A stretch of DNA of 64,000 nucleotides from the NCBI GenBank assembly GCA_963766885.1, contig CAVYBO010000002.1, positions 293,048-357,047 of the forward strand, given 5' to 3'. A program made the translations under genes and the position numbers. The stretch is from an uncultured bacterium. GTDB taxonomy: Bacteria > Patescibacteriota > Minisyncoccia > Phycocordibacterales > CAIRYW01. The stretch's first letter is position 1, and every line of letters begins with the position of its first letter. This document shows, one piece after another, positions 41,776-60,003 of the stretch. A model generated the notes under the pieces. It was not told the DNA's origin. It worked only from the letters and a program-made list of their open reading frames with translations, and did not search any database.

Positions 41776-41843
41776 AATTTTATTATATCAAAAGTATTTG
41801 CTGGGTGTGTGGGACGATGTTGGAACCTTTATAAAGCAAGAAA

Positions 41844-42926
41844 TTACTTTAAAATCCTAACGGCTCCATTATCTGCATCAACTTCCACCAAATCTCCATC
41901 TTTAATTTTCTGCGTTGCGTTTTGCGTACCCACAATGCAAGGTATTTTAAACTCTCTACTTACAATTGCTGCATGAGACATCATACCACCCTGATTTGTG
42001 ACAATGGCAGAAGCCTTTTTGCAAGCCATTAAAAGCTCTGGGGAGGTTGTATCCGCAACCAAAACATTACCCTTTGGCATAGCTGCTAATACAGTCTTCA
42101 AATTTTTAAACAAACTTGGTCCATATTCAATAACTGTGGCTTTTGCTCGAACCTTACCTTTATAAACAGGTATGCCTCTAATTTCTTTTTCATTATGATT
42201 CTTTTTTGAGAAAAATTCATTGGCAATTTTCGAAGCTTCAGATCCATCAAAATAAATGATTTTATTTCCATAACTATAATGAATGTATGCTTTCTTTCTG
42301 TTATTAATTACAACTTGAGGTAATTTCTTACCTTTATACAGATTTAAGATATCTAGCTTTGAGTATCCAAGGATATTTTGAAAAGGAAGGCTAAATTGTT
42401 CAGATATTTTTTTCAAAAACATTATCCTGTGAGAATCTTTACTAAAAAGCAATTTATTCATCCTAAGACGAGCTGTATTTTTTATTTTCTCAAACTGTTT
42501 TAAATTGTCGGCTATAGTTTTGTTGCTATCCTTAAATTGATAGGCTTTATCAACATAAAAGAATTCTGTTTTTGAATAATATTTATGATTATCAGAAAGC
42601 CAATTTAATGCCTGTTTACATTCTGACAAAGAAATTTCTTTTTTCTTTAAAAGATCGTTGAAGAATTTGTCTGCATGATCGTAGTATGAATAAATTTCAT
42701 TTTTGAAATCTGAGAATTTATTTGTGTTTTTAAAAAGCTTAAGTCCGTCATCTAGAGTTTCTTTGATTACTTTTTCTGGTAGAAAAGTTGTCCAGGTATT
42801 ATTTGAAAATACAGCAAGACCATGCAACTTTTTGTAATTTGTCATGAATAAATCAGAGCCGAGATATGAAGTGTTTGTGGTAGAAAAAAGCTGTCTGTAT
42901 TTAGAATAATCTAGTTTTAGATTCAT
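41844..42926 (-). CDS. PEP-utilizing-enzyme mobile (phosphohistidine swivel) domain protein, paralog 5 of a tandem array (RPH-like substrate module)
   Basis: 360 aa. C-terminus EIRGIPVYKGKVRAKATVI ... TNQGGMMSHAAIVSREFKIPCIVGT...DGDLVEVDADNGAVRILK matches PF00391-type GG-x-TSHAAI-ARE-GIP-VVG. The N-terminal approx. 240 aa are paralogous to the other array members. Confidence 0.8.
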   Translation of the reverse strand: MNLKLDYSKYRQLFSTTNTSYLGSDLFMTNYKKLHGLAVFSNNTWTTFLPEKVIKETLDDGLKLFKNTNKFSDFKNEIYSYYDHADKFFNDLLKKKEISLSECKQALNWLSDNHKYYSKTEFFYVDKAYQFKDSNKTIADNLKQFEKIKNTARLRMNKLLFSKDSHRIMFLKKISEQFSLPFQNILGYSKLDILNLYKGKKLPQVVINNRKKAYIHYSYGNKIIYFDGSEASKIANEFFSKKNHNEKEIRGIPVYKGKVRAKATVIEYGPSLFKNLKTVLAAMPKGNVLVADTTSPELLMACKKASAIVTNQGGMMSHAAIVSREFKIPCIVGTQNATQKIKDGDLVEVDADNGAVRILK

Positions 42927-44593
42927 TTGATTATTTTCACAATCCCTTTATCTGCATCAACTTCCACCACATCACCATCTTTTAAAACCTTAGTAGCAAT
43001 TTTTGTGCCAATTATACAAGGCTTCTTTAATTCCCGTGCAACAATTGCGGCATGGCAAGTTATCCCACCCTCATCAGTCACAAAAGCTGCCGCTTTTTTC
43101 ATTGCAGGAAGAAAATCTGGGGTGGTCATTGGAGAAACAATAATGGCATCCACGGGAACACTTTTGACTTGTTCTCTTCTGAATAGTAAGAAAACTTTTC
43201 CTTGAACCTTACCTTTAAAAGCAATGCCTCCTTTAATTTCTCTATTATCTTTTACTATTTCCTTTGAAAGAACTGTACCGATTTGTTCGGCAAAAATATC
43301 TAAACTAGCTTTTCCGTACTTAATACCGTCAACAAGAATATAATCATTTAATCTCTTTTTTAGCTCAACTTTATCCGGAGGGTTAGAAATCTCTGAACTC
43401 AAGATTGTTGTCTCAAAACCTTTAAGATTAGGATAAATATGTAGCAGGGAATTTCGGATTAATTCACTACTAGAAGCAAAAAATGTTTCTTTTTCTCTAA
43501 AACCTTGTGCCAAGGATTTAATAGCCTTAGGAGTCCTTTCATCTATTGCAGAGTAGTAATAAATGAGAAAACCAAACATCAATTTATCTACTTTTTCAAC
43601 AAATTTTTTCAGTTCTGTTTTTTTAGATAAATGTTTTTTATTTAAATACTCTTTCTTTAAAAGAGCGTAGTCTTTCTCAAATTTTTTACCTATCTTTTTG
43701 TAGAATTTATCACTTTTTTTATTCTCCTTGAGTATTTGATCCTTAAGCCATTCTGTACCTGAAATGTTTTCCCAAATCTCTATTGTCCCATTCTTAAAAT
43801 AATGAATTACTAGGGGTTTGTGTGGATTTTTCCAGCCCCAATTTTTTTGTACGTATTGTCGACAAGCTTTACCCCAAGATTCTTGAATTATAATCGTAGT
43901 ATCTCTTGTATATACTTTTTCAAAAACTTCTTTATTTACTTCAGGATTATTGATACCTTTTTTGGAACAAAAATCTGCGAAATTATTCCCATTCAAAATA
44001 TTTTCATCCTCTACAATGTATCCCTGAGAGCGTTTTCGAATTTTTTGCTGATTTATACTTTTACCTTTTAATAATTGTTGGATTTCCTTATATGAAATTA
44101 TATGTTTCAAGTTTTTATTTATATTGCTCTTCTTCAATAAAGAATTAACTGTATCTTCTATTTTTGAGTCAAAAGAATACAAAATTCCTTCTGACAAAAC
44201 TCTTGAATCCCAAGCTTCTGGAATTGCTTTTACAAATCGATCACTGACAACAAAAATGTAGAAAGACATTATCTGGCCAATTAATCTGAAGATATTTTCT
44301 AAGTTTTCAGAAGTAACATTAATTTTTTTTAATTTATTTATACTGCTGATAAATTCCGAATTCAACTCTTTGAAAAGTTTTTTATTATCAATTATCTTCC
44401 CCGTAATAATCTCTTTAAAATATTTGAAGTCATTATTGGAATGGTAAAAATTAACTTTTTCACCATCATAATGAAAAATCACAGGGTAGTACCAATCTAA
44501 GGACTTTTTTAAATATTTACCATATCCTTGTTGCCAGGCCTGCACTGAAAATAGACTTAAATCTCTTTTAACTGTTGGCTTAAGTTCCTTCAT
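42923..44593 (-). CDS. PEP-utilizing-enzyme mobile-domain protein, paralog 4
   Basis: 556 aa. C-terminus EIKGGIAFKGKVQGKV ... TDEGGITCHAAIVARELKKPCIIGTKIATKVLKDGDVVEVDADKGIVKIIK. 4-nt overlaps with both neighbours. Confidence 0.8.
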   Translation of the reverse strand: MKELKPTVKRDLSLFSVQAWQQGYGKYLKKSLDWYYPVIFHYDGEKVNFYHSNNDFKYFKEIITGKIIDNKKLFKELNSEFISSINKLKKINVTSENLENIFRLIGQIMSFYIFVVSDRFVKAIPEAWDSRVLSEGILYSFDSKIEDTVNSLLKKSNINKNLKHIISYKEIQQLLKGKSINQQKIRKRSQGYIVEDENILNGNNFADFCSKKGINNPEVNKEVFEKVYTRDTTIIIQESWGKACRQYVQKNWGWKNPHKPLVIHYFKNGTIEIWENISGTEWLKDQILKENKKSDKFYKKIGKKFEKDYALLKKEYLNKKHLSKKTELKKFVEKVDKLMFGFLIYYYSAIDERTPKAIKSLAQGFREKETFFASSSELIRNSLLHIYPNLKGFETTILSSEISNPPDKVELKKRLNDYILVDGIKYGKASLDIFAEQIGTVLSKEIVKDNREIKGGIAFKGKVQGKVFLLFRREQVKSVPVDAIIVSPMTTPDFLPAMKKAAAFVTDEGGITCHAAIVARELKKPCIIGTKIATKVLKDGDVVEVDADKGIVKIIK

Positions 44594-45999
44594 TGAATTA
44601 ATTTAACAATCCCTTTATCTGCATCGACTTCTACTAAATCTCCATCTTTGAGAATTGAAGTAATTCTAGGAATTCCAACTATTGAGGGAATATTAAGCTC
44701 TCTAGTAATAACGGAAACATGGGCAGTTATTCCTCCTTCTTCTGCTAAAACCGCAGAAACCTTGTGAAGTATGGGGACAAAATCTGGACTGGTATTATGA
44801 ACCACCAAAATATCTCCTTTCTCGACTTTTTTAAATTGTTCCGGCAATAAGACGATTTTTACCCTTCCTTTGGCTTTACCCTTACAAGCAGATCTGCCTT
44901 TTATTTCCTTATTTGCATCTGCTTTAGGCTCAATATATTTATTAATGAAATCTTCTGCTTTATCTCCAGAAATATAAAACTTATATCCTTTCGGCTTAGC
45001 AACAAAAACAATAGTTTTTTTGTAAAGATTTAATTTATCTTTTGAAAGTTTTTTACCCTTAAGAAGATTAATTAGATCTTCATGCATTAGATTTTTCAAT
45101 TGGCCAACAGGAAGACCTATTTGTTTGGAAGCAATTTTCCATAATTTTTCAAATTCAAACTGCGCTTTATTTATATAGAACTTGTAACAATCTTTCATCC
45201 AAGAAGTCTCACCAATCAACTTTAAAATGACTTGGTCTCCAGAATATTTCTTTAAGTATCCATTGAGCTCTTTTAACCTAGATTTGTGTTCTGAAATAAT
45301 TTTTTTCTTGATAATCTCTGGCTTTTCTTTTTTGAGAGCATCTAGTCTTTTTTTGTAATATCCGTATGTTCGTGGTTGTTCGTCGTAATAACCGAGAGTT
45401 ATGTGTTTGTATGAATTAAATATTTTATTTAATTCTAATGATAAATCTTTCTTTGGGTTGTTTTTAATCTTAAGCACTAAATCACACAAAGCAATCTCTT
45501 CTTCGGCAAAAAAACTTAATCTATTCGAAACATTACAAGCAGAAAGAATATTTACTGATTCGCTTCCGAACTTATCAGTTATTTTATTAATTATAGCTTT
45601 ATCAATTTTTCTAAGATATGTAGCCGTGTGATGCATATACTCAAAAAGATCAAAGCAACTTGCAAATGACTTTGAAAGAGATTTGCTTGGGTCTGATTCA
45701 TTAATACAAATATTTTGGATTTTTGTTGAAAGGGTTTTTATCTCCTTTTCCAGAGACTTCATTCCACCTGGTTTAGATAGTCTTTCAAAAGCTGAATTTA
45801 TTATTTTAGGAATAAATGAAAGATAAAGTTTAAAAGAAGTATTTTTAAATACAACTACTCCAGGAAGATCTAGGCTCCACGAACCTTCTTTTGCCAAATA
45901 ATTATAAAGAACATTGGCAACCCAAAGATAACTTGCCCTTCCTGCTTCGTATTGAATTGGAACTTTTTCAATATCTTTTTCAAAATTTTTAATATCCAT
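44590..45999 (-). CDS. PEP-utilizing-enzyme mobile-domain protein, paralog 3
   Basis: 469 aa. C-terminus EIKGRSACKGKAKGRV ... EEGGITAHVSVITRELNIPSIVGIPRITSILKDGDLVEVDADKGIVKLIQ, with the His retained in an AH context. Confidence 0.8.
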   Translation of the reverse strand: MDIKNFEKDIEKVPIQYEAGRASYLWVANVLYNYLAKEGSWSLDLPGVVVFKNTSFKLYLSFIPKIINSAFERLSKPGGMKSLEKEIKTLSTKIQNICINESDPSKSLSKSFASCFDLFEYMHHTATYLRKIDKAIINKITDKFGSESVNILSACNVSNRLSFFAEEEIALCDLVLKIKNNPKKDLSLELNKIFNSYKHITLGYYDEQPRTYGYYKKRLDALKKEKPEIIKKKIISEHKSRLKELNGYLKKYSGDQVILKLIGETSWMKDCYKFYINKAQFEFEKLWKIASKQIGLPVGQLKNLMHEDLINLLKGKKLSKDKLNLYKKTIVFVAKPKGYKFYISGDKAEDFINKYIEPKADANKEIKGRSACKGKAKGRVKIVLLPEQFKKVEKGDILVVHNTSPDFVPILHKVSAVLAEEGGITAHVSVITRELNIPSIVGIPRITSILKDGDLVEVDADKGIVKLIQ

Positions 46000-46001
46000 A
46001 A

Positions 46002-47012
46002 TTATTTAAGAATTTTCACTATTCCCCTATCTGCATCCACTTCCACTAAATCTCCGTCTTTCAAAACCTTTGTCGCTATCTTAGTACCAACAATGCAAGG
46101 CTTTTGAAGCTCTCTTGCAACAATTGCAGCATGACAAGTTACACCGCCCTCATCTGTAATAAAAGCTGAGGCTCTTTGCATGGCAGGAAGAAATGATGTT
46201 CTTGTCATTGGACTAACTAGAATGTCTCCATCACTAACATTTACTAAATCATTTTCGTTAGTAATGATAATCACTTTACCTGAAACTTTACCTTTGAAAG
46301 CTGGGTTTCCTTTAAACTCAGAAATATTCTCATCAATTTCATTCTTGATATTTTTTAGAAATTCTTTGGTATAGGCTACAGCCTCTTCTCCGATTAATAA
46401 GCGTGCTTTTCCTGCTATCGATTCTATAACGTATTGCTTTTGCCTTAGGGTTAATAAACCTGCATCAAGATTTAAAGATACAATTTCATCAGGTAGAGCG
46501 TATTTGAGTAGCTCGGTATCAATATTCAAAGTTTCTGAAATCTGTTTATATAACTTTGGAAGAAATTCCGAAGTTGCTATATGCTGCGCGCTTTTCGTTC
46601 CTCTTAAGTCCGAAATCATATCAATCGACTCTTGGTCTGTGACATAAAATCCCAGGAAAAAAGAAGTAATCTCATGGATCCATAACTGTCTAAATATTTT
46701 CATGAATTCCTCTCTGTTTTCAAGAGGATCTTTTTCAAAAAAAGGAAATACTAACTCTTCGTATTTTTTAAATCCTTTCAGAAGCTCCAAAAAACTTCCT
46801 GCTTTTGCTAGATTTTCAAATCCATCTAATTCTTTCTGATCCACATACCTTTCCATGATGCCATGCTTACCTAAGACAATCGTATCCAGGTTAAAACCAC
46901 CCTCTTTTATAGGAAAATTTGGATATACTTCAGTAGCTAACCATATTTCGAAAAGTCCAAACACTCTCGTTGCCACAAGATTCCAAGCTCTATTTTCATC
47001 AGTATTATCCAT
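46002..47012 (-). CDS. PEP-utilizing-enzyme mobile-domain protein, paralog 2
   Basis: 336 aa. C-terminus EFKGNPAFKGKVSGKV ... TDEGGVTCHAAIVARELQKPCIVGTKIATKVLKDGDLVEVDADRGIVKILK. Confidence 0.8.
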   Translation of the reverse strand: MDNTDENRAWNLVATRVFGLFEIWLATEVYPNFPIKEGGFNLDTIVLGKHGIMERYVDQKELDGFENLAKAGSFLELLKGFKKYEELVFPFFEKDPLENREEFMKIFRQLWIHEITSFFLGFYVTDQESIDMISDLRGTKSAQHIATSEFLPKLYKQISETLNIDTELLKYALPDEIVSLNLDAGLLTLRQKQYVIESIAGKARLLIGEEAVAYTKEFLKNIKNEIDENISEFKGNPAFKGKVSGKVIIITNENDLVNVSDGDILVSPMTRTSFLPAMQRASAFITDEGGVTCHAAIVARELQKPCIVGTKIATKVLKDGDLVEVDADRGIVKILK

Positions 47013-47015
47013 ATT

Positions 47016-48527
47016 TTAAGAAGATTTATTTTTGATTATTCTTACTATTCCTTTGTCTGCATCCACTTCAACCATATCACCATCTTTCAGAATTTTAGTA
47101 GCAATCTTGGTGCCAATGATACAGGGCTTCTTCATTTCACGGGCAATTATAGAGGCATGACAAGTGACACCGCCCTCATCCGTGACAAAGGCGGCCGCTT
47201 TCTGCATCGCCGGTAAGTAATCAGGACGAGTCATAACAGCAACCAAAACATCACCAGTCTGAACTTTATAAATTTCCTCAACACTCTCAATTATTTTTAC
47301 TTTACCCCTGACAATACCTTTGCTCGCTACAAATCCTTTTAATTCTTGATTTCCTTTCTTATATTCTCCGGTACCGATGCGATCCAGTTTTTCAATCAAA
47401 GGTAAATCAGTTGTAACATCATATTTGCCCTTAACCCAGAGAATAATGCAGTAGTTTATTCTTCTATCCAATTCTTTAGTGTCTATCTTTTCATTTAAAA
47501 CTGCTTCCATTTCTGGAGGAAAAGCATACTTCAATTGTTCCAAAGAATATTTGGTTCTTTTTGATATTTCTTCAAGCAGTTTACTGAAGTAGTGCGTTGC
47601 CCAGAAAGTTCCCTTTTTACGTTCATCCTGCCACCAGTTGAAATCGTCCGTGATTGCAAGCAAAGTGATTTCTTCTTTGGGTAACATAAGCGTTTTGATA
47701 AGGTGTAATTTTTGTTTCTTGTGATCCGAAGCAATTGATTTAATTTCATTTATTTTCTTATCGATTCCTTTAACATCAAGTTTCAGGTATTGATTAATTC
47801 TTTTTTCAAAAAATTCCTCTGTAAGAATATTATCCTTAACATAATTGTTTTGAGTCCAGAAATAATTTTTCTGATGTTTTTTAATAAGAGGATTTTTAAG
47901 TTTTGGATTTGCTTTTACTTTCTTTGCGACTTTTAGTAGCTCAATATCTTCTAACTGTAGGAACGATGTAAAAATTGGAGACGTTAGGATTCCGAAATAT
48001 TCTACAAACCTATTTTCCAATCCTTTGCTTTCAAGAAAGGTTTTAATTTTTGAAGCAATCAATGTGTCAGTACTTAAAGTAAAACCGTCAATTAATCCGG
48101 AGCTGTTCAATTTCTTGGTGTAAATATCAGCCAAACTATTATATTTATCCAAAAGTTCTTTCTTGCTTAAAGAACCGAGGTCAAGACTGTTTAATTTTAA
48201 GCAGTCCTTATAAAACCTTTCTTGCCAAGGCATAAAGTTACTAATCATCTTTCTACTAACTTTAGGATCTTTTTTTGAAGCTTTGATTATTTTGGAAGTT
48301 GTATATTCAAGCTCACCCAAATTGTGATACCAATCCGCTCTATGCTTTGAAAAACCGGCGTATGCAATTCTTTGACCATATTGGTACTTAGTTCTCTGAA
48401 TAGATGATATATGCGAATCACCTAGGAAAAACATAAAGTGGGGACAAGCATCAAATCGTTGCCTGTACCAAAGACTTTTTTCTATCTCCGGCAATCTTGA
48501 TTGTAGTAATTTAGAGTACTTAATCAT
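47016..48527 (-). CDS. PEP-utilizing-enzyme mobile-domain protein, paralog 1
   Basis: 503 aa. C-terminus ELKGFVASKGIVRGKV ... TDEGGVTCHASIIAREMKKPCIIGTKIATKILKDGDMVEVDADKGIVRIIK. Confidence 0.8.
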   Translation of the reverse strand: MIKYSKLLQSRLPEIEKSLWYRQRFDACPHFMFFLGDSHISSIQRTKYQYGQRIAYAGFSKHRADWYHNLGELEYTTSKIIKASKKDPKVSRKMISNFMPWQERFYKDCLKLNSLDLGSLSKKELLDKYNSLADIYTKKLNSSGLIDGFTLSTDTLIASKIKTFLESKGLENRFVEYFGILTSPIFTSFLQLEDIELLKVAKKVKANPKLKNPLIKKHQKNYFWTQNNYVKDNILTEEFFEKRINQYLKLDVKGIDKKINEIKSIASDHKKQKLHLIKTLMLPKEEITLLAITDDFNWWQDERKKGTFWATHYFSKLLEEISKRTKYSLEQLKYAFPPEMEAVLNEKIDTKELDRRINYCIILWVKGKYDVTTDLPLIEKLDRIGTGEYKKGNQELKGFVASKGIVRGKVKIIESVEEIYKVQTGDVLVAVMTRPDYLPAMQKAAAFVTDEGGVTCHASIIAREMKKPCIIGTKIATKILKDGDMVEVDADKGIVRIIKNKSS

Positions 48528-49549
48528 TTTAGTGTTGTAATGGGCCTGCTTTGAGTAATATAGAATTTTCTTTTCTCATATGCCCATTCGATATCACAAG
48601 GGAAATCGTAGTGATTTTCTATTTTTAAGATGAGATCTGAAAATTTCAATATTTCTTTGATAGAAAGGCATTGCTCATTAGCTTTTTTATTTGGGATGTT
48701 TTTCCAAACGTTGCCTCCAGTGGATTTTCTAAATAGCCCTTTTGATTTTTCTGAAACATTTACATCAATGATATTCCTTGGTTCTTTTTCAATTACATAG
48801 CTGTCTGGGGTGATTTGTCCAGAAACAATAGCTTCTCCGAGTCCCCAAGAGGCTTCAATGATCATTTGATTTCTATCTTCCGTAACAGGATGAACAGAGA
48901 AGACGATTCCTGATTTTTCACTATTTACCATTTTTTGGACTACTACAGCCACAGAAATATGAGTATCATTTAATCCTTTTTCAAATCGATAAAATATAGC
49001 TCTCGGGGTAAAAAGTGAAGCAAAACATCTTTTGATATTTTCTTCCAGATTTTTACTTGTTGTATTGAGAAAACTATCTAGTTGACCAGCCCAAGCATGC
49101 ATTGCCCCATCCTCTGCCGTGGCACTTGAACGGACAGCAACAAACTTTGCATTTAATTTCTTAAATGAAGTTTTTACTTCTTTCAGCATTTCTTTGGGCA
49201 TTTTTGCCTCAAGAATCATTTCTTTGATATCTTCGGAAGCTTTTTCAACTTCTTCCATTTCCTTATGGTTTATCTTGTCCAAAATTGCATCAATTTCTTG
49301 AGTTAGATCATTTTCGGATAGAAAGTATTCAAAAGAGCTTGAAAGTATTACAAATCCTGGTGGAACTGGGATTTTGGCATTTATCATTTCACCCAAAGAT
49401 GCCCCTTTACCACCGGCTATTGGAGAGTCGTTTTTGCCCAAATCCTTGAAAAATTTGATGTATTTCACACCAATATTATGCAGTAAATTCACATTATTAT
49501 AAAGGCTAAGAATAAGGCGTCTCGGGCGCAATAACCTAGCTCGTGTCAA
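48524..49549 (-). CDS. Stand-alone PPDK_N-type ATP-binding (ATP-grasp, pyruvate phosphate dikinase / PEP synthase / rifampin phosphotransferase N-terminal) domain protein
   Basis: 341 aa. VKYIKFFKDLGKNDSPIAGGKGASLGEMINAKIPVPPGFVI ... DIEWAY...ITQSRPIT matches the PF01326 start and end. No swivel or TIM-barrel domain. The true start may be an internal GTG (VNLLHNIGVKY), as the annotated N-terminal 25 aa are encoded by a GC-rich patch. Confidence 0.8.
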   Translation of the reverse strand: MTRARLLRPRRLILSLYNNVNLLHNIGVKYIKFFKDLGKNDSPIAGGKGASLGEMINAKIPVPPGFVILSSSFEYFLSENDLTQEIDAILDKINHKEMEEVEKASEDIKEMILEAKMPKEMLKEVKTSFKKLNAKFVAVRSSATAEDGAMHAWAGQLDSFLNTTSKNLEENIKRCFASLFTPRAIFYRFEKGLNDTHISVAVVVQKMVNSEKSGIVFSVHPVTEDRNQMIIEASWGLGEAIVSGQITPDSYVIEKEPRNIIDVNVSEKSKGLFRKSTGGNVWKNIPNKKANEQCLSIKEILKFSDLILKIENHYDFPCDIEWAYEKRKFYITQSRPITTLK

Positions 49550-49666
49550 CTGCGATCTAAGGTCTGGTGCGTACGTAGTTAGACGTCGTAAGGGTATTCT
49601 GACAACTTTTCATCTTCATGAGACACCCGTCTAGGTCTAAGTAAATTTCAAAATATAATGAACAGT
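49550..49666 (-). other. GC-rich, potentially structured 5' leader/intergenic element upstream of the phosphotransferase array
   Basis: An approx. 115-nt patch (plus strand ...cgtctcgggcgc...ggtctggtgcgtacgtagttagacgtcgtaagggtattctgac...gagacacccgtctaggtc) is far above local GC. Contains complementary TAGACG/CGTCTA and palindromic ACGTACGT. Confidence 0.3.
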
Positions 49667-50806
49667 TTATTGCTCTAGAGTCTTTCTCCCTTCCTCAAGT
49701 TCACTACCAGAAAAAACCGTGCTCTTTTTATCCCAATCATTTGTGATTAAATCTGCCTTACGTTTTAACAATTCTATCAATTTGTCGGTATCAATATCTC
49801 CTTCAAAAAGAAAAGCGTAATTTGGATCTTGTTTCAGAATTTTTACCATTTTTTCTTTAGTTGTCCATGGATCATTATCATGTAGAACAACTTTTACATG
49901 ACTAAGGGAATCTTCAAATAAAACAGTATTCTTACTTCCTACTTCTGAGCCGATTGAAACAACCATGCTTTCAGGTGCATCTAATTTTCCAACTGATGTA
50001 ATCTTAACCTGAACCCTAGTATCTTTATGATCTTCTCGTTGGTGATGACGACCAAGGATATATGAATCCTCGTATTGAATCTCGGCTTCACTCACTTTAT
50101 CTTGACGCATTCTTAAATATCTAAGCCACCTTACTGGTGTTTTTGCAGAATCCCACTCAAAAATACCTTCATCCATCCGATTGAATTCTGAATTAACTAG
50201 TTTTTTACTTCCAACTGGATCAAGTTCATAAACCATTTCAGCTGAACCGTACGGAGAATCAGTTTGATTTTCTGAGGCTGTGTTTATAGTCGCAAACGAT
50301 TTATTCATTAAAGAATCTCTAACAAACATAAATTGAATATTCCCGAGGCCTTCACTAGGCGCAGGTTCAGATACACTGATCTCGCGAATCTTATCATCAG
50401 TTTGGGATCGCTTAGGAACCGTAGACAATTTAATGAGCCGCATATTAGTGCCCTTTGCATAATACGGATCAAATCGATCTTCAAAGGAAACTGCCCAATA
50501 TTTTCCTGGATATTCAGCAATAATTGGATAAAATTTCTGCGGCAATTCTATCGCAAACGGATTATCTGAAAACTCATTATTCACATCAGAATATCTAAAA
50601 CCTCCTTCATGTCCCAAATTATTATCCTGAGCAAATTCAAAAAGTTCTCTAGTAAGCCCGAAGAGATTCATCACCTCTTGCCTATTAACAGTAGCAAGAG
50701 TTTCTGGTTGTTCAGAAAGAGTATCTGGCGCCTCTTCAACATTATCGGGCTGATCACCTTGTTTAACTTTAAAAGCTTTTAGACTTCTTTCGAAAGGATT
50801 GTCCAT
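49667..50806 (-). CDS. Hypothetical protein (379 aa), immediately upstream of and co-oriented with the phosphotransferase array
   Basis: No recognisable domain. Acidic N-terminus. Confidence 0.45.
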   Translation of the reverse strand: MDNPFERSLKAFKVKQGDQPDNVEEAPDTLSEQPETLATVNRQEVMNLFGLTRELFEFAQDNNLGHEGGFRYSDVNNEFSDNPFAIELPQKFYPIIAEYPGKYWAVSFEDRFDPYYAKGTNMRLIKLSTVPKRSQTDDKIREISVSEPAPSEGLGNIQFMFVRDSLMNKSFATINTASENQTDSPYGSAEMVYELDPVGSKKLVNSEFNRMDEGIFEWDSAKTPVRWLRYLRMRQDKVSEAEIQYEDSYILGRHHQREDHKDTRVQVKITSVGKLDAPESMVVSIGSEVGSKNTVLFEDSLSHVKVVLHDNDPWTTKEKMVKILKQDPNYAFLFEGDIDTDKLIELLKRKADLITNDWDKKSTVFSGSELEEGRKTLEQ

Positions 50807-50993
50807 GTAAAAAATATAACATATTTCTCACTATTAGACCGAGTTCGGCTAGTGTGAATCCTTGTCCCTGACCAGTCATGGACTCCCACCAAATTAGACT
50901 TGTAAGCAGTTTTTATAAATACACCTATTTTATAGCCCATTTTATATGGAGTGTTTGGAATTTTCAAATACAATGCGCTACAATTAAATTGCT

Positions 50994-51443
50994 ATGAAAG
51001 TAGGAGATGACACTAGAGAAAGGTATAAAAAAGCTATTAATGAGTCCTTCGTTAAGGACCCTTTTATGCCCTTGAGAGATTTACAAAAATATCTTGAAAA
51101 GAAAGGGGTCTATATTTCGAATTTGAATTACCTCAGTGAACTACGTAAAGAAGTCACAAAAGATAATGCTAAAAACGTTAAGGAAGAAACTCGATATAAA
51201 AAATACTCAGAATATTCAGAAAGCTGTCGTATCCTTAGAACTGAGTTATTTAAAATTGCTATTCCTGGATGTCTTGGTGGAAATGATCCTGAAACGACCC
51301 CCAAAGAAAAAATTGCTGCTATAAATGAACTCATGAAACTTGACAAGAACTTAGTTGAAGTTGGATTTATTCTCGGAATATTTGAAGAACATGAGCCCCC
51401 AGTAAATCTAAGAACTGGTAAAGTAAACTATAAACCTCATTGA
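50994..51443 (+). CDS. Hypothetical protein
   Basis: 149 aa, Lys/Glu-rich. No domain recognised. Confidence 0.4.
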   Translation: MKVGDDTRERYKKAINESFVKDPFMPLRDLQKYLEKKGVYISNLNYLSELRKEVTKDNAKNVKEETRYKKYSEYSESCRILRTELFKIAIPGCLGGNDPETTPKEKIAAINELMKLDKNLVEVGFILGIFEEHEPPVNLRTGKVNYKPH

Positions 51444-51453
51444 TTAATTTTCC

Positions 51454-52278
51454 CTAAACAAATTTTTGATTGTTTAATATTAAGTTATAAATCTCTGAAA
51501 GAAAATGTGCAAAAGATAATTCATCCATTATATAAGAAGATGGATGAGCGCAACTATTTCTTATATCAAAAAGATGTAAGATTGCTTGAAGTTGATTTAA
51601 ATCTAGAGAAATCATACCGGAAATTATAATAGTTAGGTCTTTTTCAAAAACCTCTTGTAATTCATTTTCAATTTTAATATTAAATTCTTTATTAAATTTT
51701 TTATAAAATCCAGACTGACTTGCTTTTAGTTTTTTTGATGTTGAGTTGAAACTAGCAAAACCTTTTTTTATTACAAAATCACGAAGTCTATCGACAACGG
51801 CACATCCTGCCATAACAGTCGCTGCTTTATAACATTGATTTTTTGCAGCCCTAAAAGCTTCTTCGTAGTATTGTCTTTCATCATTCGAAGTAATCTTTAC
51901 AAGAATTTTTTGAGATATACCTTCCCAAACCATCGGCGAGGAGCGCCCAGTTCTAATCATCGGGATCAAAATATCTCTCTGTATATTTTTTCTTAAGGGA
52001 CTCAAAAGCGCAATGTATGAACTTTTTCTGTTATTAGCAGTTGACATTTGGATCATCTTTTCCATTACTGAATCTACTTTGTTTATCTCTTCGTCAGAAA
52101 TAACAGACTCTTTTCTTATTTTGGTCGAAAACTCCTCAAACCAACGGCTTGAAAGATTAGATATTTTATCTTTAAGATTTTTTTGAGAGATAAAAGCAGA
52201 TTTGTTTGCTCTTATCTTGTTTACTACATCATCGACATACGTTAGATAGGTCTCAAGTTCCTCTATTATTTCTTTCAT
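51454..52278 (-). CDS. Putative HEPN-domain protein (Rx4H motif), abortive-infection-like
   Basis: 274 aa. C-terminal LHLFDIRNSCAHPSSY contains R-x4-H in the context typical of HEPN RNase motifs. Otherwise alpha-helical. Confidence 0.45.
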   Translation of the reverse strand: MKEIIEELETYLTYVDDVVNKIRANKSAFISQKNLKDKISNLSSRWFEEFSTKIRKESVISDEEINKVDSVMEKMIQMSTANNRKSSYIALLSPLRKNIQRDILIPMIRTGRSSPMVWEGISQKILVKITSNDERQYYEEAFRAAKNQCYKAATVMAGCAVVDRLRDFVIKKGFASFNSTSKKLKASQSGFYKKFNKEFNIKIENELQEVFEKDLTIIISGMISLDLNQLQAILHLFDIRNSCAHPSSYIMDELSFAHFLSEIYNLILNNQKFV

Positions 52279-52286
52279 TTAATTTC

Positions 52287-52889
52287 CTAAGAGGCAAGCT
52301 CTTTTACCAAATCTGCAGCTAACTTTTTACCAATTGGAGAAAGTTTGTTTGTTGTTCCAGGTTTAAATCCAGCAAAAATTTCTTTCATTGCTTTAAGATT
52401 TGTTGTAAAATTTGCAGCGTCATATGTACCATAAGTCACACACATTTCTCTAAGCTCCTCAGTTGGGACATCAAAAGAGCCCTCCATAAATTGATGTCTT
52501 ATTCCTATAAGCAATGCAAGATTTTTTTGTCTTCGGCTAGTTTTATTAGATTTAAGATCAGTGACTTCAATACTTATATTCCCTAATTCATCTATACTAA
52601 AAACTTTACGGATTAAATCATCACTAATACCGTTTGGGGTTGTAAAGACTTTTATTCTTTTGTTTACTTCATTAGGAATATCTGATACACCCGCAACAAT
52701 AGTATCAGTTATTGAAACCGGAGGTTTATGAGATTCTCCTTTTAGCAAAGAATTTAAGAGAATTTCGAAGCATTTTTCCTGAAGGTTTTGGGGGCACAAT
52801 TTAACTAGTTCAAGAATTTCCTTTAACTCTTTTTTAAAATCATCTTTTTGCATGGCTAAAATAATAACACAAATTTCTTTATAGGCCAA
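52287..52889 (-). CDS. Hypothetical protein (200 aa), in an operon with the flanking defence-like genes
   Basis: 8-nt gap to the downstream HEPN gene. No known domain. Confidence 0.4.
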   Translation of the reverse strand: MAYKEICVIILAMQKDDFKKELKEILELVKLCPQNLQEKCFEILLNSLLKGESHKPPVSITDTIVAGVSDIPNEVNKRIKVFTTPNGISDDLIRKVFSIDELGNISIEVTDLKSNKTSRRQKNLALLIGIRHQFMEGSFDVPTEELREMCVTYGTYDAANFTTNLKAMKEIFAGFKPGTTNKLSPIGKKLAADLVKELAS

Positions 52890-52958
52890 GCTTATTTTGA
52901 ACTACTCTTAGATCTTCTAACATAATTCTAAACAGCCGTATCTCTTGATAAATAATTA

Positions 52959-54359
52959 TTAATATCTTGTATCTACATAATATCCATTCCTACCATTGCA
53001 AGGATAGCCATCTTTAGTTTTATGGGGACTTAATGTCACATTACCATATGTGCTTCTAGTAAAGCGTCTACCACAATAACTACATTCATAAATATATTTC
53101 GGACCAGAAAAACTTCTCGCTATAACAGATCTATGTCTTGCCGCACGAAATGGTTTGTTTATATCAAAAAAATAAGGATTTTCTGGTCTTTCTCCGGATT
53201 TGGATAACTCTATTTGATATCGAGGAATAAATTTTTCTTCTGTGTTTACTATCCCTTCAACTTTATCTGCAACAAAACATCTTACACCGACTCCGCTACC
53301 ACCACTAAGATTATAGGCGTAAAAATACTCCCGTTGAGATCCGTCCTTGCGTTGCATATATTTTAGCGAGTATGGTTCAATCATTCTATCTGAATCTGTG
53401 TAACGGATTTTCAAAAGAGTTTGTTCTCTTGCACCTTTCATTATTACTGCACGCGCCTCAGGACTGAAATATACAAACTGAGCATACCCGTTGTCGGTAT
53501 AAATACCAAAAAGAGATTCAACGTCAGATACAAAAGATGTGATAGCATCTTCTACATCAATAAAAAGTTGTTTTGCACAGACTATACCTTTTACCCAATA
53601 GGTTCTGAAATAATCAAAAGCTGTCATCTTCAGTACATCTTTTAACGCGTAAGGATTTCTTTCAAAAATGGTCTTTTTTACAAAGGTTTGTACCACCTCC
53701 TCTTTATTCAAGTTTCCTCCTAACAACCGGATTGAGTGGACATAGTCAAACAAATCTGGAGCATGCTGTCTTTGCATTAAACATTTTAGTTTTGTTGCAA
53801 TTATCTCCTCAAGTTTCATACACCTGATCTTACATACGACCTCAGCAGCATCAGAATAAGGATGAATAAGATAAACATCTTGTATATCGAGAAGAACTTT
53901 ATCGAATCTAGTGATATCCATCGATATCTTTATTTTCATATGATCTGATCCTCCATTAAAATCCTTAAAATAGATTCGTGCTTCATATACTTTCAAGCCA
54001 GGTATTGGGGCTTCGGCTGCTGCAAACTTTTCTTCAATTTTATTATCTTCTTTAACAAAAGTTATACCTGCTTTTTCCTGAATAAAATCACAAACCTTAT
54101 TGATTTCACCCAATAGTAAATTTTGATCAATATCACCCATGATTCCAAAATCTAAGTCTGAAGAAAATCGAGTATTTTCAAAATACCCTTTACGAAGAGC
54201 ATTTCCTCCTTTTAGAAAGATCTCATTTTTTAGATCACTTATTGTGAAAAGGCCAAAAAGAAACCAGCCAAATAGATAATCCCTTTCGACGTTGGTCGGG
54301 TGAATCTCAAATTCTTTTGATTTCGCTTCAATTTCGTCTCTTAGAATCATAACCGCCAT
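52959..54359 (-). CDS. AbiEii/DUF1814-type nucleotidyltransferase fused to a WYL domain and C-terminal zinc ribbon
   Basis: 466 aa. NTase core FLKGGNALRKGYFENTRFSSDLDFG (AbiEii KGGTAL...RFSEDIDF-like pol-beta fold). WYL-like LLKIRYTDSDRMIEPYSLKYMQ...REYFYAYN...VRCFVADKVEGI. C-terminal YECSYCGRRF...CNGRNG. Confidence 0.7.
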   Translation of the reverse strand: MAVMILRDEIEAKSKEFEIHPTNVERDYLFGWFLFGLFTISDLKNEIFLKGGNALRKGYFENTRFSSDLDFGIMGDIDQNLLLGEINKVCDFIQEKAGITFVKEDNKIEEKFAAAEAPIPGLKVYEARIYFKDFNGGSDHMKIKISMDITRFDKVLLDIQDVYLIHPYSDAAEVVCKIRCMKLEEIIATKLKCLMQRQHAPDLFDYVHSIRLLGGNLNKEEVVQTFVKKTIFERNPYALKDVLKMTAFDYFRTYWVKGIVCAKQLFIDVEDAITSFVSDVESLFGIYTDNGYAQFVYFSPEARAVIMKGAREQTLLKIRYTDSDRMIEPYSLKYMQRKDGSQREYFYAYNLSGGSGVGVRCFVADKVEGIVNTEEKFIPRYQIELSKSGERPENPYFFDINKPFRAARHRSVIARSFSGPKYIYECSYCGRRFTRSTYGNVTLSPHKTKDGYPCNGRNGYYVDTRY

Positions 54360-54430
54360 TATACCCCTCTAGGTCATTTGGTACGATTTTTAAACGGCTG
54401 GACGTCTGGAACGATGTTGGAACTGTATTG

Positions 54431-55121
54431 CTAAGATAGCCAAGTGATACCATCTTTGTCTATTCGTGCCGAATTAATCGGTAATCCTATGTCTGGCGTG
54501 CCAGCGTCAATTTCAAGTTGTACAAGAAATCTCGCTCCTTTTTCTGTCGAAATGATACTCCCGGTACCATGTTTTTTTAGATATTCTTGAATTACTTTAG
54601 CGTGGCCAAGATAAAAAATATGTCTACCTGCAAGTCGCTCTGTGTCAATAATTAGTTCTCCTTTTTCATTTAACTTTGCAGCGAAACGAATAGCGATAGT
54701 AGAAGGCCCATCCATTCTCCCAATGAGCAAGAATGACACATGTTCCTTTCTTATCACCTTCAGTTTCATTTTTAAAAACATCTGGTTCATTAGTTTTAAT
54801 TTTAAGTAAGAATTTCTTAAGCGCTTCCGAAATATTTGTTTCTAATTTATTAATTGTACTAGGAACTGTCTGACCATCCTGTATGGAAGCTTCAACTATT
54901 TTAGCTACATCAAAATCCCCACCGTGATGTTTTACCAAACCACTTACCCCGAAGAGATTGTCTTTATATTCAAAAAGTTTTTTTACTTCACTTTGACTTT
55001 TTTGTTTTCCTCCACCAACAAAAGTACCCATTCCGTCAGCTGCAATTACAACCATTTGAGAATTTTGAATTGCAACAATAGTTGTTCCATAACGTATTGT
55101 TTTTTTGATTTTTTTTATCAT
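54431..55121 (-). pseudogene. HslV / proteasome-beta-like Ntn hydrolase with a 12-aa propeptide, split across two frames (frameshift or sequencing error)
   Basis: Frame 1 (55121-54666): MIKKIKKTIRYG|TTIVAIQNSQMVVIAADGMGTFVGGGKQ...[26 protein letters not shown] aligns with HslV [21 protein letters not shown]...[23 protein letters not shown]. Frame 2 (54790-54431) continues with HVSFLLIGRMDGPSTIAIRF..., proteasome-like. The two frames overlap by 125 nt. Confidence 0.6.
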
Positions 55122-55163
55122 TATAAATTGGAAACAATAAAATAGATACTCCTTTTAATTGGC

Positions 55164-55838
55164 TCAATTTTCTTCAATATTTTGTAGTAGTTTACTCATA
55201 AGAGTAAAAACCCTATCGAAATTCTTCTTCGAATCTAATTTAGTTTTTTGTCCTATCGGTACTAAAGATTTAATAACCCTTTTCATTTCATTTCGAAATT
55301 TTGAGTTTGTTTTATTCCCCGAATGCTGAATTATATTTCTTATAGAATTTAAAACATTAAAATAATGCCCCTGTTTATCATCTTTAAAGACTTTAATATT
55401 AAATTTTTCTAATAAAAATTTTTTCCACTCTTTGATTTCGTAGGATTTATTAATAGCAAATGCATCAATAAAATATTCTTTTACTTCCTCAACATTAGAA
55501 AAATCTTTTACGTCATCATATGTTGCCACTTTATCAGAAGAGTAGGACTCAGGATATTTAACAAAAAGCTCTTTCAAAAACTCAAACATAAAACATTCAA
55601 AATTAGAGAAAAAGGCAACAAAACCCAATTCGTAGAGTTTATCAATCTGTTTTGGATCTACTTCAAGTAAATCCTTAAATTTTTCATAATCAGGTCGCGT
55701 CTTTGCTTTTGTATAGTTCAAAAATTCTTGAGTGGCAATCGTTTGAGCTTCTAGTGCACGTATAAGTTTATAGGTAGCCTGAAGTTCACCCTTTAGATTT
55801 ATTACTGAATCAAATTTATTTAAGTTTTTTATAGTCAC
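55164..55838 (-). CDS. Putative HEPN-domain protein (Rx4H motif)
   Basis: 224 aa. C-terminal NVLNSIRNIIQHSGN contains R-x4-H. All-alpha. Confidence 0.45.
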   Translation of the reverse strand: MTIKNLNKFDSVINLKGELQATYKLIRALEAQTIATQEFLNYTKAKTRPDYEKFKDLLEVDPKQIDKLYELGFVAFFSNFECFMFEFLKELFVKYPESYSSDKVATYDDVKDFSNVEEVKEYFIDAFAINKSYEIKEWKKFLLEKFNIKVFKDDKQGHYFNVLNSIRNIIQHSGNKTNSKFRNEMKRVIKSLVPIGQKTKLDSKKNFDRVFTLMSKLLQNIEEN

Positions 55839-55922
55839 TTAAATGAAGATAGGTCTAATAGTTTGGGATTTTTCATAAAAGATGCTTATAATTTGTTTTT
55901 CATTCATATAACGACTTTTTAA

Positions 55923-57005
55923 CTATTCGTTCTCCTTTTTATCCTCTTTTTTGTAACCCTCTGATAGGAAACCACTACTTAATCCGTAAAATTTATTCTG
56001 CTGTAATTTAAATATTTTCTTATTTCTTAAATCAATTTGTTTTTTTGAATTGTATAAAGCCTTTTGTTCTTCCAAATGTTTTATGGTTTCCTCATCATCA
56101 TCAGCTTTTGGCTCGCGAGGTTTCTCAATGGTAGGGGTTATAACTTCTGCGCTTACACCATTTTCAAAATGTTTCAGCAATAACTTAAAAAGTATTCTTA
56201 TGTTACTTTTGTTTTCGTGGTTTTCAATTTTTAATTGTTTTGTAAGTTCTTCAATTATAGCTTCACTTTTTTCTTCCTTGTCAGCGTCATTAATATCATC
56301 CATAGCCTTCTTTCTGTCATCTCTGAGATGTTCGTAAGCCTTTTTTGCCGCCTCCGTCATTTGAATTGTTTCGTATATTTTAAGAGCGTGTTCAAGCGCA
56401 ATACCAAAATAATGTGCAAGTTGTTCACCTGTTTGTATAAATATTTGTATTGTTCCGTTACTTACATAACTAATTATGAATTCTTTATCCTGATTAGTCG
56501 CTGTTGCAATTTCAACCAAAAATAATTTTAAGTCATGTAGAACTTCTTCAAAATTTGTTAATTTTTGGTATTCAAGTGGAAAAGAAAATCCGATCTCATA
56601 TTCTTTTTCAGTTAGTTCTCTTGCTTCAATATCTAGAGCATTGAGAGAATTTTTAATTGTATTTAGTTTGTCTATAGCCTCTTGACGTTGTGTTGTAAAA
56701 TCTGTAAGTTTTTTTAAAACCTCATGTCCTTGGCTACTTAAGATATTGTTTAACTCTATCCATGTTCGATCTCCAAAAAAAGTTTCTATCTTCAAATCTT
56801 CAAGAATTTCAAAATCTGTTAAAGCATAGTTAGATAGGCGTGTTTTATTAAGTTCTTTTTCAAGAGAACTTAATTCAGTATTTAATACATCTGGTGTATT
56901 TTGAGTATAAAGGGCAAGTATATTTTGGAATTTAGCCTGAAGTCCAAAGTTTTTTTCGTCTTGTTGAATATCCTCTATAACTTTTAGTAGTTTACCTGTA
57001 TCCAT
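55923..57005 (-). CDS. Hypothetical acidic coiled-coil protein
   Basis: 360 aa, Glu/Lys-rich, predicted long coiled coils. Confidence 0.4.
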   Translation of the reverse strand: MDTGKLLKVIEDIQQDEKNFGLQAKFQNILALYTQNTPDVLNTELSSLEKELNKTRLSNYALTDFEILEDLKIETFFGDRTWIELNNILSSQGHEVLKKLTDFTTQRQEAIDKLNTIKNSLNALDIEARELTEKEYEIGFSFPLEYQKLTNFEEVLHDLKLFLVEIATATNQDKEFIISYVSNGTIQIFIQTGEQLAHYFGIALEHALKIYETIQMTEAAKKAYEHLRDDRKKAMDDINDADKEEKSEAIIEELTKQLKIENHENKSNIRILFKLLLKHFENGVSAEVITPTIEKPREPKADDDEETIKHLEEQKALYNSKKQIDLRNKKIFKLQQNKFYGLSSGFLSEGYKKEDKKENE

Positions 57006-57048
57006 ATTTTAGTTTATAACATATTTTTTCATTTTTATCAAAAATGTT

Positions 57049-57834
57049 CTAGTTTAACCTATTAACAATTTGATTAAGAAAATCTCTAGTCTGCGAATCC
57101 ACAGCACCATAATCAGTATTTATCGGCGTCCTTGTAATGACATTCTCGTAAACATCAGCAAAATCTTCTGAGGGAGAAGAAGCATAACTTTCAGTAGGAT
57201 CATTTCCATCATCGTCTTCTAAGGGCATATTTGCAGGTATACCTCTAAGTGCATAATATTCTTTCCATTCTTGAGCTGTTAAAGTACCTGCAACAGCATG
57301 GCCGAGTTCGTGTGTAAGATCTCCTGCAAAATTATTGTTTAACACAATTTTGTTTATGTATATCAATGACTGACCGCTTCTATATCTGCTATATGAAGCC
57401 CCTTCTGAAAGCCACATCGTATTTAGAGGTGGTAGCTTAGCGGATAAGCCGTTGCTTGGCTCGATGATGTATTGATTATCTGAGTATGCCAAACTATTGA
57501 CAATAATTATCGGAATATTTTTTAACATACTCTCAGGAAATTTTGCATTGTAAACAATTTGAGTAATCTGATTTTTTAAATCGTCAGTTAAGTCATTTGT
57601 ATTCGGGTAATCTATTTGTCCTAGATAAAAAGTGTAGCCGAGATTATTTACCTGTTCTAAAGGAATTTGATTAGATGATGAGGGGTTTGATTGTTTTTCA
57701 GAAAGATTGTTTACAAAAGCGTGTAGTTCATAGCAAAAAGTTTGCGTTGGACAGTCTGTAATTCTCCATTGAAAGAAGATATATGTTCCGATTAACAGAA
57801 TAAAAATTATTATGAATGAATATGTATTTTTCAT
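57049..57834 (-). CDS. Secreted/membrane-anchored putative zinc metallopeptidase (HExxH)
   Basis: 261 aa. N-terminal signal anchor and LTHELGHAVAG motif. Confidence 0.5.
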   Translation of the reverse strand: MKNTYSFIIIFILLIGTYIFFQWRITDCPTQTFCYELHAFVNNLSEKQSNPSSSNQIPLEQVNNLGYTFYLGQIDYPNTNDLTDDLKNQITQIVYNAKFPESMLKNIPIIIVNSLAYSDNQYIIEPSNGLSAKLPPLNTMWLSEGASYSRYRSGQSLIYINKIVLNNNFAGDLTHELGHAVAGTLTAQEWKEYYALRGIPANMPLEDDDGNDPTESYASSPSEDFADVYENVITRTPINTDYGAVDSQTRDFLNQIVNRLN

Positions 57835-58035
57835 TTTTTAAACGCAAAAAGCCCACCACATAGGTGATTGCTTTCGCAACCCATATCGGTTTCCCAATAT
57901 GACCAGTAACGGTGACCCCATATGATGGGTTCTTTATTCGTTACTGGTTTTTTGCCATGCCATTAAAAATTAATGGTTTAGGCCCTATTTAGTTGTAAAG
58001 AAATTATAACCCAAACTTTTAAAAATTACTCCTTC

Positions 58036-58908: not shown

Positions 58909-59113
58909 ATCGTACCCGTAAGATACCGTAATAGTGTTTAGAGACAATCTCCTCAACCCCGAGGGGATTTTATGTTTTTACAATTCAGCCAAATATTAAT
59001 AATACGCATCCAGAAATACTTTAAGCAGAAGCATAGTATCGATATTTCTGATGAAGTTGCCAATGAATACTTGCACTCTCTAGCAGGAATGTTTGCTGTG
59101 CTTGCAGAGATGG

Positions 59114-59168: not shown

Positions 59169-59201
59169 TTGATGACTTGCTAATTACCCAACTCAATACA
59201 A

Positions 59202-59978: not shown

Positions 59979-60003
59979 TAAATAAAAGTGATTATATAAT
60001 GCT

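Follow-up and report, generated by a model that had tools for sequence, protein, structure and literature searches.

The array considered here consists of six genes on the minus strand, at positions 41844-49549 of a 64,000-nucleotide stretch of DNA from an uncultured bacterium of the phylum Patescibacteriota (assembly GCA_963766885.1, contig CAVYBO010000002.1, positions 293,048 to 357,047). The whole stretch is referred to as the window, and its own positions are used throughout. By their packing, the six genes form one operon. It probably encodes, at a rough probability of 0.6, a multi-acceptor two-component dikinase of the type of rifampin phosphotransferase (RPH) and HpeHI, with one donor and five acceptors. 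The genes are numbered W1 to W6 in the order of transcription, with lengths in amino acids (aa):

48524-49549, minus strand: W1, stand-alone ATP-grasp (PPDK_N) subunit by Pfam, presumed ATP-binding phosphoryl donor
47016-48527, minus strand: W2, 503 aa, long RPH-like N-terminal domain (N-domain, ~390 aa), then swivel domain; His457 codon at 47157-47159
46002-47012, minus strand: W3, 336 aa, short N-domain (~225 aa), then swivel domain; His294 codon at 46131-46133
44590-45999, minus strand: W4, 469 aa, long N-domain (~355 aa), then swivel domain; His427 codon at 44719-44721
42923-44593, minus strand: W5, 556 aa, two short N-domains (~1-222 and 223-445), then one swivel domain; His514 codon at 43052-43054
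41844-42926, minus strand: W6, 360 aa, short N-domain (~245 aa), then swivel domain; His318 codon at 41973-41975

The six open reading frames (ORFs) abut one another and fill the whole interval. An earlier note on this DNA had described them as a split array of one PPDK_N gene and five swivel-His paralogs, and both the coordinates and the Pfam matches bear this out. The junctions W1/W2, W4/W5 and W5/W6 are ATGA overlaps, and the other two are gaps of 3 and 2 nt. Such overlaps suggest translational coupling and count in favor of an operon with a shared donor. Consensus scans for promoters and terminators within the array gave nothing above the shuffled expectation.

In the proposed mechanism, W1 would bind ATP and pass the beta-phosphate to the swivel His of each of its five partners, with the release of AMP and Pi; transfer to all five modules is postulated by analogy with HpeI/HpeH and RPH. 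Each charged swivel domain would then swing back to its own RPH-like N-domain and hand the phosphate to the acceptor bound there. Because the N-domains have strongly diverged from each other, the five of them (six, counting the tandem pair of W5) most likely bind different acceptors, which would be small molecules particular to each module. The operon would act as a hub, its single ATP-binding subunit supplying several phosphotransferases with different substrate specificities.

Domain content and predicted folds of the six proteins

The assignment of W1 as the donor is based on a single PPDK_N domain (PF01326, E 3e-98), matched over model positions 3-312 of 328, with no second domain found by Pfam. 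Each of the proteins W2 to W6 ends in one full-length PEP-utilizers domain (PF00391), with E-values from 6e-22 to 3e-27 (4e-26 in W3, 6e-22 in W4, 6.5e-26 in W5). The 225-445 residues preceding this swivel domain have no Pfam match, and the TIM-barrel phosphoenolpyruvate (PEP)/pyruvate domain PF02896 is matched by none of the six array proteins. Such an outcome, an intact His in five of five swivel domains and no TIM barrel, is what the earlier note had anticipated when it proposed the search against these three models.

The catalytic phosphoryl-carrier His is invariant within a GGxxxH motif in all five modules. They carry TDEGGVTCH or a variant of it, which fits the two-component dikinase motif T/SxxGGxxxH. 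The motif of W2, W3 and W5 is GG(V/I)TCH, as in PEP synthase; in W4 it is GGITAH, where Ala precedes the His, and in W6 it is GGMMSH, without the regulatory Thr of PEP synthase.

Among NCBIfam models, W1 is matched by the N-terminal third of PEP synthase (NF005057, E 2e-100) and by the N-terminal third of RPH (E 2e-76). In the PDB, its matches are PEP synthase 8a8e (1.9e-74), the RPH ATP-grasp domain 5hv6 (1.2e-54) and 9goj (1.5e-50), the last being a 387-aa chain (9goj_A) deposited as 'Phosphoenolpyruvate synthase'. The swivel domains match 8a8e with 1.3e-26, or with 1.2e-42 when a family profile is used. The length of 341 aa first given for W1 is that of the maximal ORF, starting at TTG. Another gene caller starts 19 codons downstream and the homology begins near residue 29, so the true start is probably the GTG at 49492, giving 322 aa.

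The predicted folds of the N-domains, compared with solved structures, match the RIF-binding domain of RPH, and no other match is found beyond the swivel domain. Thus, the comparison with RPH that had been suggested turned out positively, the RPH-like fold being seen for two N-domains. The sequence profiles extend the likeness to RPH beyond the swivel domain as well. The alignment of the W2-family profile with RPH begins at profile position 327, ~65 residues ahead of the swivel domain, and the NCBIfam RPH-like models align from residue 222 of W4 (PRK06241.2-1 over residues 222-467) and from residue 192-197 of W6.

The N-domains are also related to each other. In hhalign comparisons, the N-domain of W4 matches the W2-type profile with a probability of 97% (E 9e-11, 199 columns), and the short class matches the same profile with 89% over its last 75 residues. 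Against the short-class profile, the probability is 70% for the N-domain of W3 (E 4e-5, 161 columns) and 86% for the first half of W5. The internal repeat of W5 is detected by BLAST (E 1e-4, ~200 collinear residues). Moreover, 264 of 286 N-domains from related loci fall into a single BLAST-connected component. Judged by these alignments, all N-domains are homologous. The KGKKL motif (L-NLYKGKKLPQ / LINLLKGKKLSK), cited earlier as a signature of duplication, is real and lies within the conserved last ~75 residues of the N-domain. The description of one N-domain per module holds for W2, W3, W4 and W6, but not for the 556-aa W5 with its two short N-domains in tandem.

W2 is a member of the system's best-conserved family. 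Across Parcubacteria, W2-type N-domains share 60-66% identity; 39 of their positions are invariant, with many Arg, Asp, Gln, Asn, Lys, His, Trp and Tyr residues among them, and lie in the motifs YRQRFD, LIDGFALxTD, NNYV and WQDERKK. Residues of this kind may point to a polar, conserved ligand more than to a hydrophobic antibiotic.

Age of the paralogs and recurrence of the layout

The array is authentic. The five swivel-coding stretches share just 62-76% DNA identity among themselves, and an independent assembly (Logan ERR11630394, contig ERR11630394_753625) reproduces positions 41818-61487 of the window with 99.99% identity and one gap in 15-12 kb alignments. On both grounds, an assembly artefact of collapsed repeats, which the earlier note had named as a risk, is ruled out.

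The note had further described the module as amplified five times. Five paralogs are indeed present, but they did not arise by local amplification: they are ancient, each with separate orthologs in other genomes. In the following, L numbers denote loci of the survey described below. In its N-domain, W2 shares 63-66% identity with proteins of L002 and L008. A 335-aa protein of L002 matches the second half of W5 at 32% identity, proteins of L002, L004 and L051 match W6 at 29%, and for W4 the counterparts are ~490-aa proteins of L051 and L079, at 25-28%. For W3, one ortholog is found by BLAST, a 328-aa protein of L035. The identities of the swivel domains track this orthology (W2 81% to L009, W5 70% to L002, W4 67% to L079), and the gene order is partly conserved between the window's array and L002. 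Such separate orthologs, swivel domains included, together with the partly conserved order, argue that each module has been kept separately by selection. Mean swivel identity is 54% within one locus and 51.7% between loci or genomes. Since swivel domains of one locus are no more alike than those of different genomes, the set of paralogs is old and its members are maintained separately. Recent local amplification or concerted evolution of the swivel domains is ruled out, each one in the window being closest to an ortholog elsewhere.

The family is large. In a collection of 5.8 billion proteins, the N-domain of W2 has 112 homologs, nearly all of ~495 aa and ending in PF00391; the few named sources are Candidatus Parcubacteria, Kerfeldbacteria, Nanoarchaeota and Woesearchaeota. 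An exhaustive profile search gave 3298 clusters (50% identity) at E <=1e-3 and 1916 at E <=1e-10. A scan of one genome per species yielded 80 loci, which come from metagenome-assembled genomes of Patescibacteria/candidate phyla radiation (CPR) bacteria or DPANN archaea, barring a few labels; the few loci labelled Gammaproteobacteria or Methanosarcinales probably carry pipeline default labels. These 80 loci and seven others were surveyed with an own ORF caller and hidden Markov models, and the counts refer to 86 loci.

At least three module genes lie within 10 kb in 40 of the 86 CPR/DPANN loci, with a maximum of 11. The split layout is therefore widespread among related genomes, where the earlier note had proposed to look for it. 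Exactly one stand-alone PPDK_N gene (280-390 aa, within 10 kb) is present in 17 of these 40 multi-module loci and two in none of them; another of the 40 has a fused PPDK_N-swivel protein instead of the stand-alone gene. Judged by these genomes, the one-to-many layout is a recurrent feature of both CPR bacteria and DPANN archaea.

Fusions provide a second line of evidence. Within the eight-gene array of L002, a 673-aa protein unites PPDK_N, N-domain and swivel domain in the full RPH arrangement. A 1130-aa protein of L012 consists of PPDK_N and two modules, a 1675-aa protein of L044 of three modules with PPDK_N at the C-terminal end, and a 1292-aa protein of L037 of three modules. The largest form is a single, independently called gene for a 3363-aa protein in Candidatus Parcubacteria (GCA_039796615.1, JBDKJL010000038.1; L011 2-9997 and L088 1-9997), with one PPDK_N domain followed by seven PEP-utilizers swivel modules. 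Directly downstream of it are a W2-type gene of 499 aa and a His_Phos_1 gene. The library of representatives contains further members of 1836, 2309 and 2648 aa with several N-domain matches. A single ATP-grasp domain covalently joined to many modules is what would be expected from a shared donor. Hence, comparative evidence speaks for a shared kinase subunit: arrays with as many as 11 modules contain no more than one stand-alone ATP-grasp gene, and fusions join a single ATP-grasp domain to two to seven modules.

Several observations weigh against the reading of the array as a shared-donor dikinase of the RPH type. First, the short N-domains align with RPH over just ~100 residues beyond the swivel domain, and the structure model of W6 was built from an alignment of five sequences, because word-index searches for homologs of the short class returned few (2-4 proteins). 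Second, PEP synthase gives better scores than RPH for W1 and for the swivel domains, which makes descent from an RPH-like ancestor uncertain. Third, half of the surveyed arrays have no ATP-grasp gene within 10 kb, and 36 of the 86 loci contain a lone module gene of the W2 type, which thus occurs also by itself. In such arrays, the donor may be encoded elsewhere or be a different one; a canonical PEP synthase is found nearby in L021, L022 and L066. Fourth, helix-turn-helix (HTH) domains precede the N-domain and swivel domain in a 557-aa protein of L002 (4804-6477; HTH_3/HTH_26) and in the member P0111 (MerR/HTH_17), which hints at a regulatory rather than an enzymatic role for some modules.

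The last point leads to an explanation that is considered quite unlikely, namely that the array works as a phosphorelay or in regulation. The proteins with a swivel His would then serve as phosphocarriers or sensors, like Enzyme I/HPr of the phosphotransferase system or the C-terminal domain of pyruvate kinase, and would control partners or transcription through their phosphorylation state instead of phosphorylating a small molecule. It would account for the HTH-fused members, for the phosphatase genes embedded in arrays (that of L002 contains His_Phos_1 and LMWPc genes), and for the PEP-synthase-type GGxT(C/A)H motif kept by four of the five swivel domains of the window, including the Thr that is the regulatory phosphorylation site in PEP synthase. 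However, the predicted fold of the N-domains is that of an enzyme's substrate-binding domain, the characterised proteins of such architecture (HpeH, CreH, PpsA, RPH and PigC) are all catalysts, and none of the five modules of the window contains a DNA-binding or signalling domain recognised by Pfam.

Relation to known dikinases and possible functions

The separation of the ATP-grasp part from the substrate-plus-His part is already known biology. Phenylphosphate synthase (PpsAB), 4-methylbenzyl phosphate synthase (CreHI) and hydroxyphenylethanone kinase (HpeHI) are characterised two-component dikinases, each composed of an ATP-grasp protein of ~40 kDa and a protein of ~70 kDa that combines an RPH-like substrate domain with a swivel His domain (PMC12167813). 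Both components are needed for the activity of HpeI/HpeH, CreHI and PpsAB; in HpeHI, substitution of the His of HpeH abolishes activity, and HpeH and HpeI form no stable complex (PMC12167813). The split layout that had been treated as unusual is accordingly not new in itself (PMC12167813), although its one-to-many form looks undescribed.

The window's system shares with HpeHI (Rhodococcus), CreHI (Corynebacterium) and PpsAB (Thauera/Aromatoleum) the separate ATP-grasp protein of ~40 kDa, and W1 with its 322-341 aa corresponds to a stand-alone PPDK_N protein of ~35-40 kDa. In the acceptor, too, an RPH-like substrate domain precedes the swivel domain, which is C-terminal and carries the catalytic His. 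However, the known systems are 1:1 pairs, whereas the ratio is 1:5 in the window and up to 1:11 in its relatives. Their acceptor subunits have ~600 aa, as opposed to 336-556 aa in the window; they act on phenolics in Actinobacteria and Proteobacteria, whereas the host here is a CPR bacterium; and the swivel motif of the window is PEP-synthase-like (GGxTCH), unlike theirs. The NCBIfam PRK08296 models (~600-aa 'hypothetical protein'), which we take to be of the PpsA/HpeH type, match the acceptors over the swivel domain only, in the last ~110 residues, with 54-108 bits against cut-offs of 578-730 (e.g., 108 against 578).

RPH is one chain of 860 aa with one substrate domain, whereas in the window a separate ATP-grasp protein is accompanied by five acceptor chains, of which those of the short class retain just part of the RIF-binding domain. 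The identity of the window proteins to RPH and its single-chain relatives (PigC/RedH and the PRK06241 'PEP synthase' families) is only 16-20%, and the RPH model NF041857 gives 258 bits for W1 and 40-67 bits for W2 to W6, against a cut-off of 999. PEP synthase is the best sequence match for W1 and for the swivel domains, GGxTxH motif included, but its order is swivel domain and then TIM barrel, while in the window the substrate domain precedes the swivel domain and the parts are split over six genes. Membership in the PEP synthase/PPDK family is contradicted by the lack of PF02896 in all six proteins and by NF005057 scores of no more than 337 bits against a cut-off of 598. A further counterpart is the 3363-aa Parcubacteria protein, which has the same building blocks and a W2-type gene directly downstream, with the parts fused in one polypeptide rather than distributed over six proteins. 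As far as the searches of the literature reach, this fused form is undescribed. No description of one-to-many arrays or of fused CPR/DPANN forms was found in the literature searched; most subscription journals were outside its reach, and such absence is not proof. With this limit, both look undescribed.

The genes accompanying arrays in other genomes offer clues to function. A phosphate acetyl/butyryl transferase gene (PTA_PTB; for L026, the Pfam E-value is 1e-84) lies inside 11 DPANN arrays, among them the following:

L026 6004-6999: PTA_PTB gene
L027 1917-2891: PTA_PTB gene
L028 7410-8411: PTA_PTB gene
L030 8955-9941: PTA_PTB gene
L040 7490-8500: PTA_PTB gene
L043 11492-12469: PTA_PTB gene
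L047 7497-8489: PTA_PTB gene

These genes often overlap, stop to start, with module and ATP-grasp genes, and in L027 the order is W2-type gene, PTA, module and ATP-grasp gene. Such embedding hints at acyl-phosphate chemistry. HAD-like proteins of three families are encoded in 9, 8 and 7 loci, respectively, and hexapeptide transferases are present in 11 loci. Methyltransferases are clustered in L004 and L036. A TrmB-family (sugar-specific) regulator adjoins the W2-type gene in 15 of 86 loci, mostly W2-type singletons:

L003 9186-9917: TrmB-family regulator gene
L008 12926-13726: TrmB-family regulator gene
L018 8823-9557: TrmB-family regulator gene
12 further loci: TrmB-family regulator gene

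A family of ~290 aa without a Pfam match recurs within CPR arrays (L058 7842-8726 and six further loci). Its sole sequence match in the PDB is 9nzy_A, the methyltransferase-like MTH_231 (E 4.7e-7). This protein was also considered as a divergent PTA and rejected, as it has no similarity to PTA and nothing beyond the weak 9nzy match.

A possible, still tentative special case of the shared-donor dikinase is a set of kinases for metabolism or salvage that act on ordinary polar metabolites (sugars, organic acids, nucleosides, lipid head groups), which would allow modular activation of scavenged compounds in genome-reduced symbionts. In some DPANN arrays, modules may make acyl phosphates that the phosphate acetyltransferase converts to acyl-CoA. 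Such a role agrees with the recurrence of PTA_PTB, HAD-like, His_Phos_1, LMWPc, hexapeptide transferase and methyltransferase genes in or beside arrays elsewhere, with the TrmB neighbor, with the polar character of the invariant W2-type residues and with the size of the family. On the other side, none of these accessory genes is present within the window's array, and the associations are guilt by association, given as raw counts.

The second special case, regarded as improbable, is a battery of phosphotransferases inactivating xenobiotics or antibiotics, each module acting on a different toxic small molecule as RPH does on rifamycins. Among solved structures, the N-domains resemble RPH alone, the array, set in a segment of low GC, has AbiEii and a HEPN-like gene as neighbors, and the N-domains of the short class evolve fast, as expected of defence or resistance functions. 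The mainly polar or charged invariant positions of the W2-type N-domain are, however, unlike a hydrophobic drug pocket. Elsewhere, arrays are placed among housekeeping genes, between gyrB/pheS and mraZ/rsmH, or near V-ATPase genes. Furthermore, no NCBIfam RPH model comes near its cut-off, and no relative was found on phage or plasmid contigs in IMG/VR or PLSDB. For the most conserved paralog, W2, the antibiotic-resistance reading is not favored.

A large part of microbial diversity is accounted for by CPR and DPANN organisms; their genomes are very small, and most of them have not been cultured. A family of 5-11 adjacent genes, conserved across the bacterial-archaeal divide and comprising thousands of clusters, is likely to be important to their life. 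If the array is a one-donor, many-acceptor dikinase, it would widen the recently defined subfamily of two-component dikinases to functions outside aromatic catabolism and provide a modular scaffold for ATP-driven phosphorylation of diverse substrates. More speculatively, CPR and DPANN might share an unrecognised, lineage-wide kinase hub, in which one ATP-grasp subunit or domain charges up to about eleven modules with their own acceptor pockets, built as separate genes, as partial fusions or as one giant multi-headed protein. Such a hub could be a major route for activating scavenged metabolites, possibly carboxylates via acyl phosphates and phosphate acetyltransferase. There is also a consequence for annotation. 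In one metabolic survey of CPR, the cut-off for PEP synthase was set using extra Pfam domains or manual inspection of trees (PMC7304191). Because the array proteins score well against PEP synthase models, recognising such arrays should avert false calls of gluconeogenesis. The central claim lends itself directly to testing in vitro, as the array proteins are of small size and look soluble, and the models of two of them have high or moderate confidence.

The window around the array

The array differs in composition from the core genes of the window. Its GC content is 0.31-0.35, and its GC at third codon positions (GC3) is 0.22-0.32, compared with a GC3 of 0.37-0.46 in core genes (ABC transporter, DEAD helicase, sulfatase). 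The neighboring AbiEii and HEPN-like genes share the low GC3. Upstream of the array are a 379-aa protein without a Pfam match, the HEPN-like/AF_1680 gene, AbiEii and further genes without Pfam matches; the immediate neighbors (the 379-aa protein, DUF1801, EVE and others) are not conserved beside arrays elsewhere. Further upstream follow a rolling-circle Rep gene (59202-59978, PF23343), a large serine recombinase (60004-61518) and a tRNA-Gln (61458-61530).

The contig of the Logan assembly corresponds exactly to positions 41818-61487 (19.7 kb) and ends inside the tRNA-Gln and inside a 27-nt repeat, and GC and GC3 of this block are below those of the rest of the window. These features suggest that the array lies here within a horizontally acquired, tRNA-linked segment, and the block 41818-61487 is probably an integrated or variable genomic island. 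The 27-nt direct repeat (41800-41826 and 54397-54423, 85% identical) brackets the array and the AbiEii block, each copy lying 25-38 nt upstream of the start of a minus-strand gene. It is a candidate att remnant or regulatory site. An att site was not called, as the repeat bears just a weak likeness to the tRNA T-arm, and no second copy of the 3' end of tRNA-Gln was found at <=3 mismatches.

The island raises the question of whether the array is anti-phage defence cargo, which is judged highly improbable. The low GC3 common to the array, AbiEii and the HEPN-like gene, together with the separate assembly of the block that carries the Rep protein and serine recombinase and ends in the tRNA, would suit such an origin. 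Nevertheless, no array protein has a credible match among the defence models of PADLOC-DB 2.0 (four of six have none; W1 E 0.0016 and W6 E 0.0041, at ~13-15 bits), AbiEii being the sole match near the array. Orthologous arrays lie among core genes in other genomes, and the search of IMG/VR and PLSDB returned nothing.

Some further observations concern the surroundings. The AbiEii-type nucleotidyltransferase toxin is encoded at 52959-54359 (PADLOC E 3.6e-47 over residues 4-260) and has an extra C-terminal region of ~200 residues, the end of which is rich in Cys and resembles a zinc ribbon. Next to the toxin gene, nothing was recognised as an obvious AbiEi antitoxin; an ORF of 200 aa at 52287-52889 matches no family. 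The 274-aa protein at 51454-52278, located between AbiEii and the array, shows a weak HEPN_RiboL-PSP match (E 8e-4) and carries the table annotation PF27235 AF_1680. A 1188-aa ORF at 27026-30592, without a Pfam match at E<=0.001, coincides with locally low GC and a strongly negative GC skew (28-30 kb). Finally, a 19-nt motif (CGTTAACATTTGCGTTTGC-like) occurs four times at 61988-62450, with a spacing of 96-228 nt, inside a 270-aa ORF (61950-62762, no Pfam match), and these four copies imply a repetitive protein.

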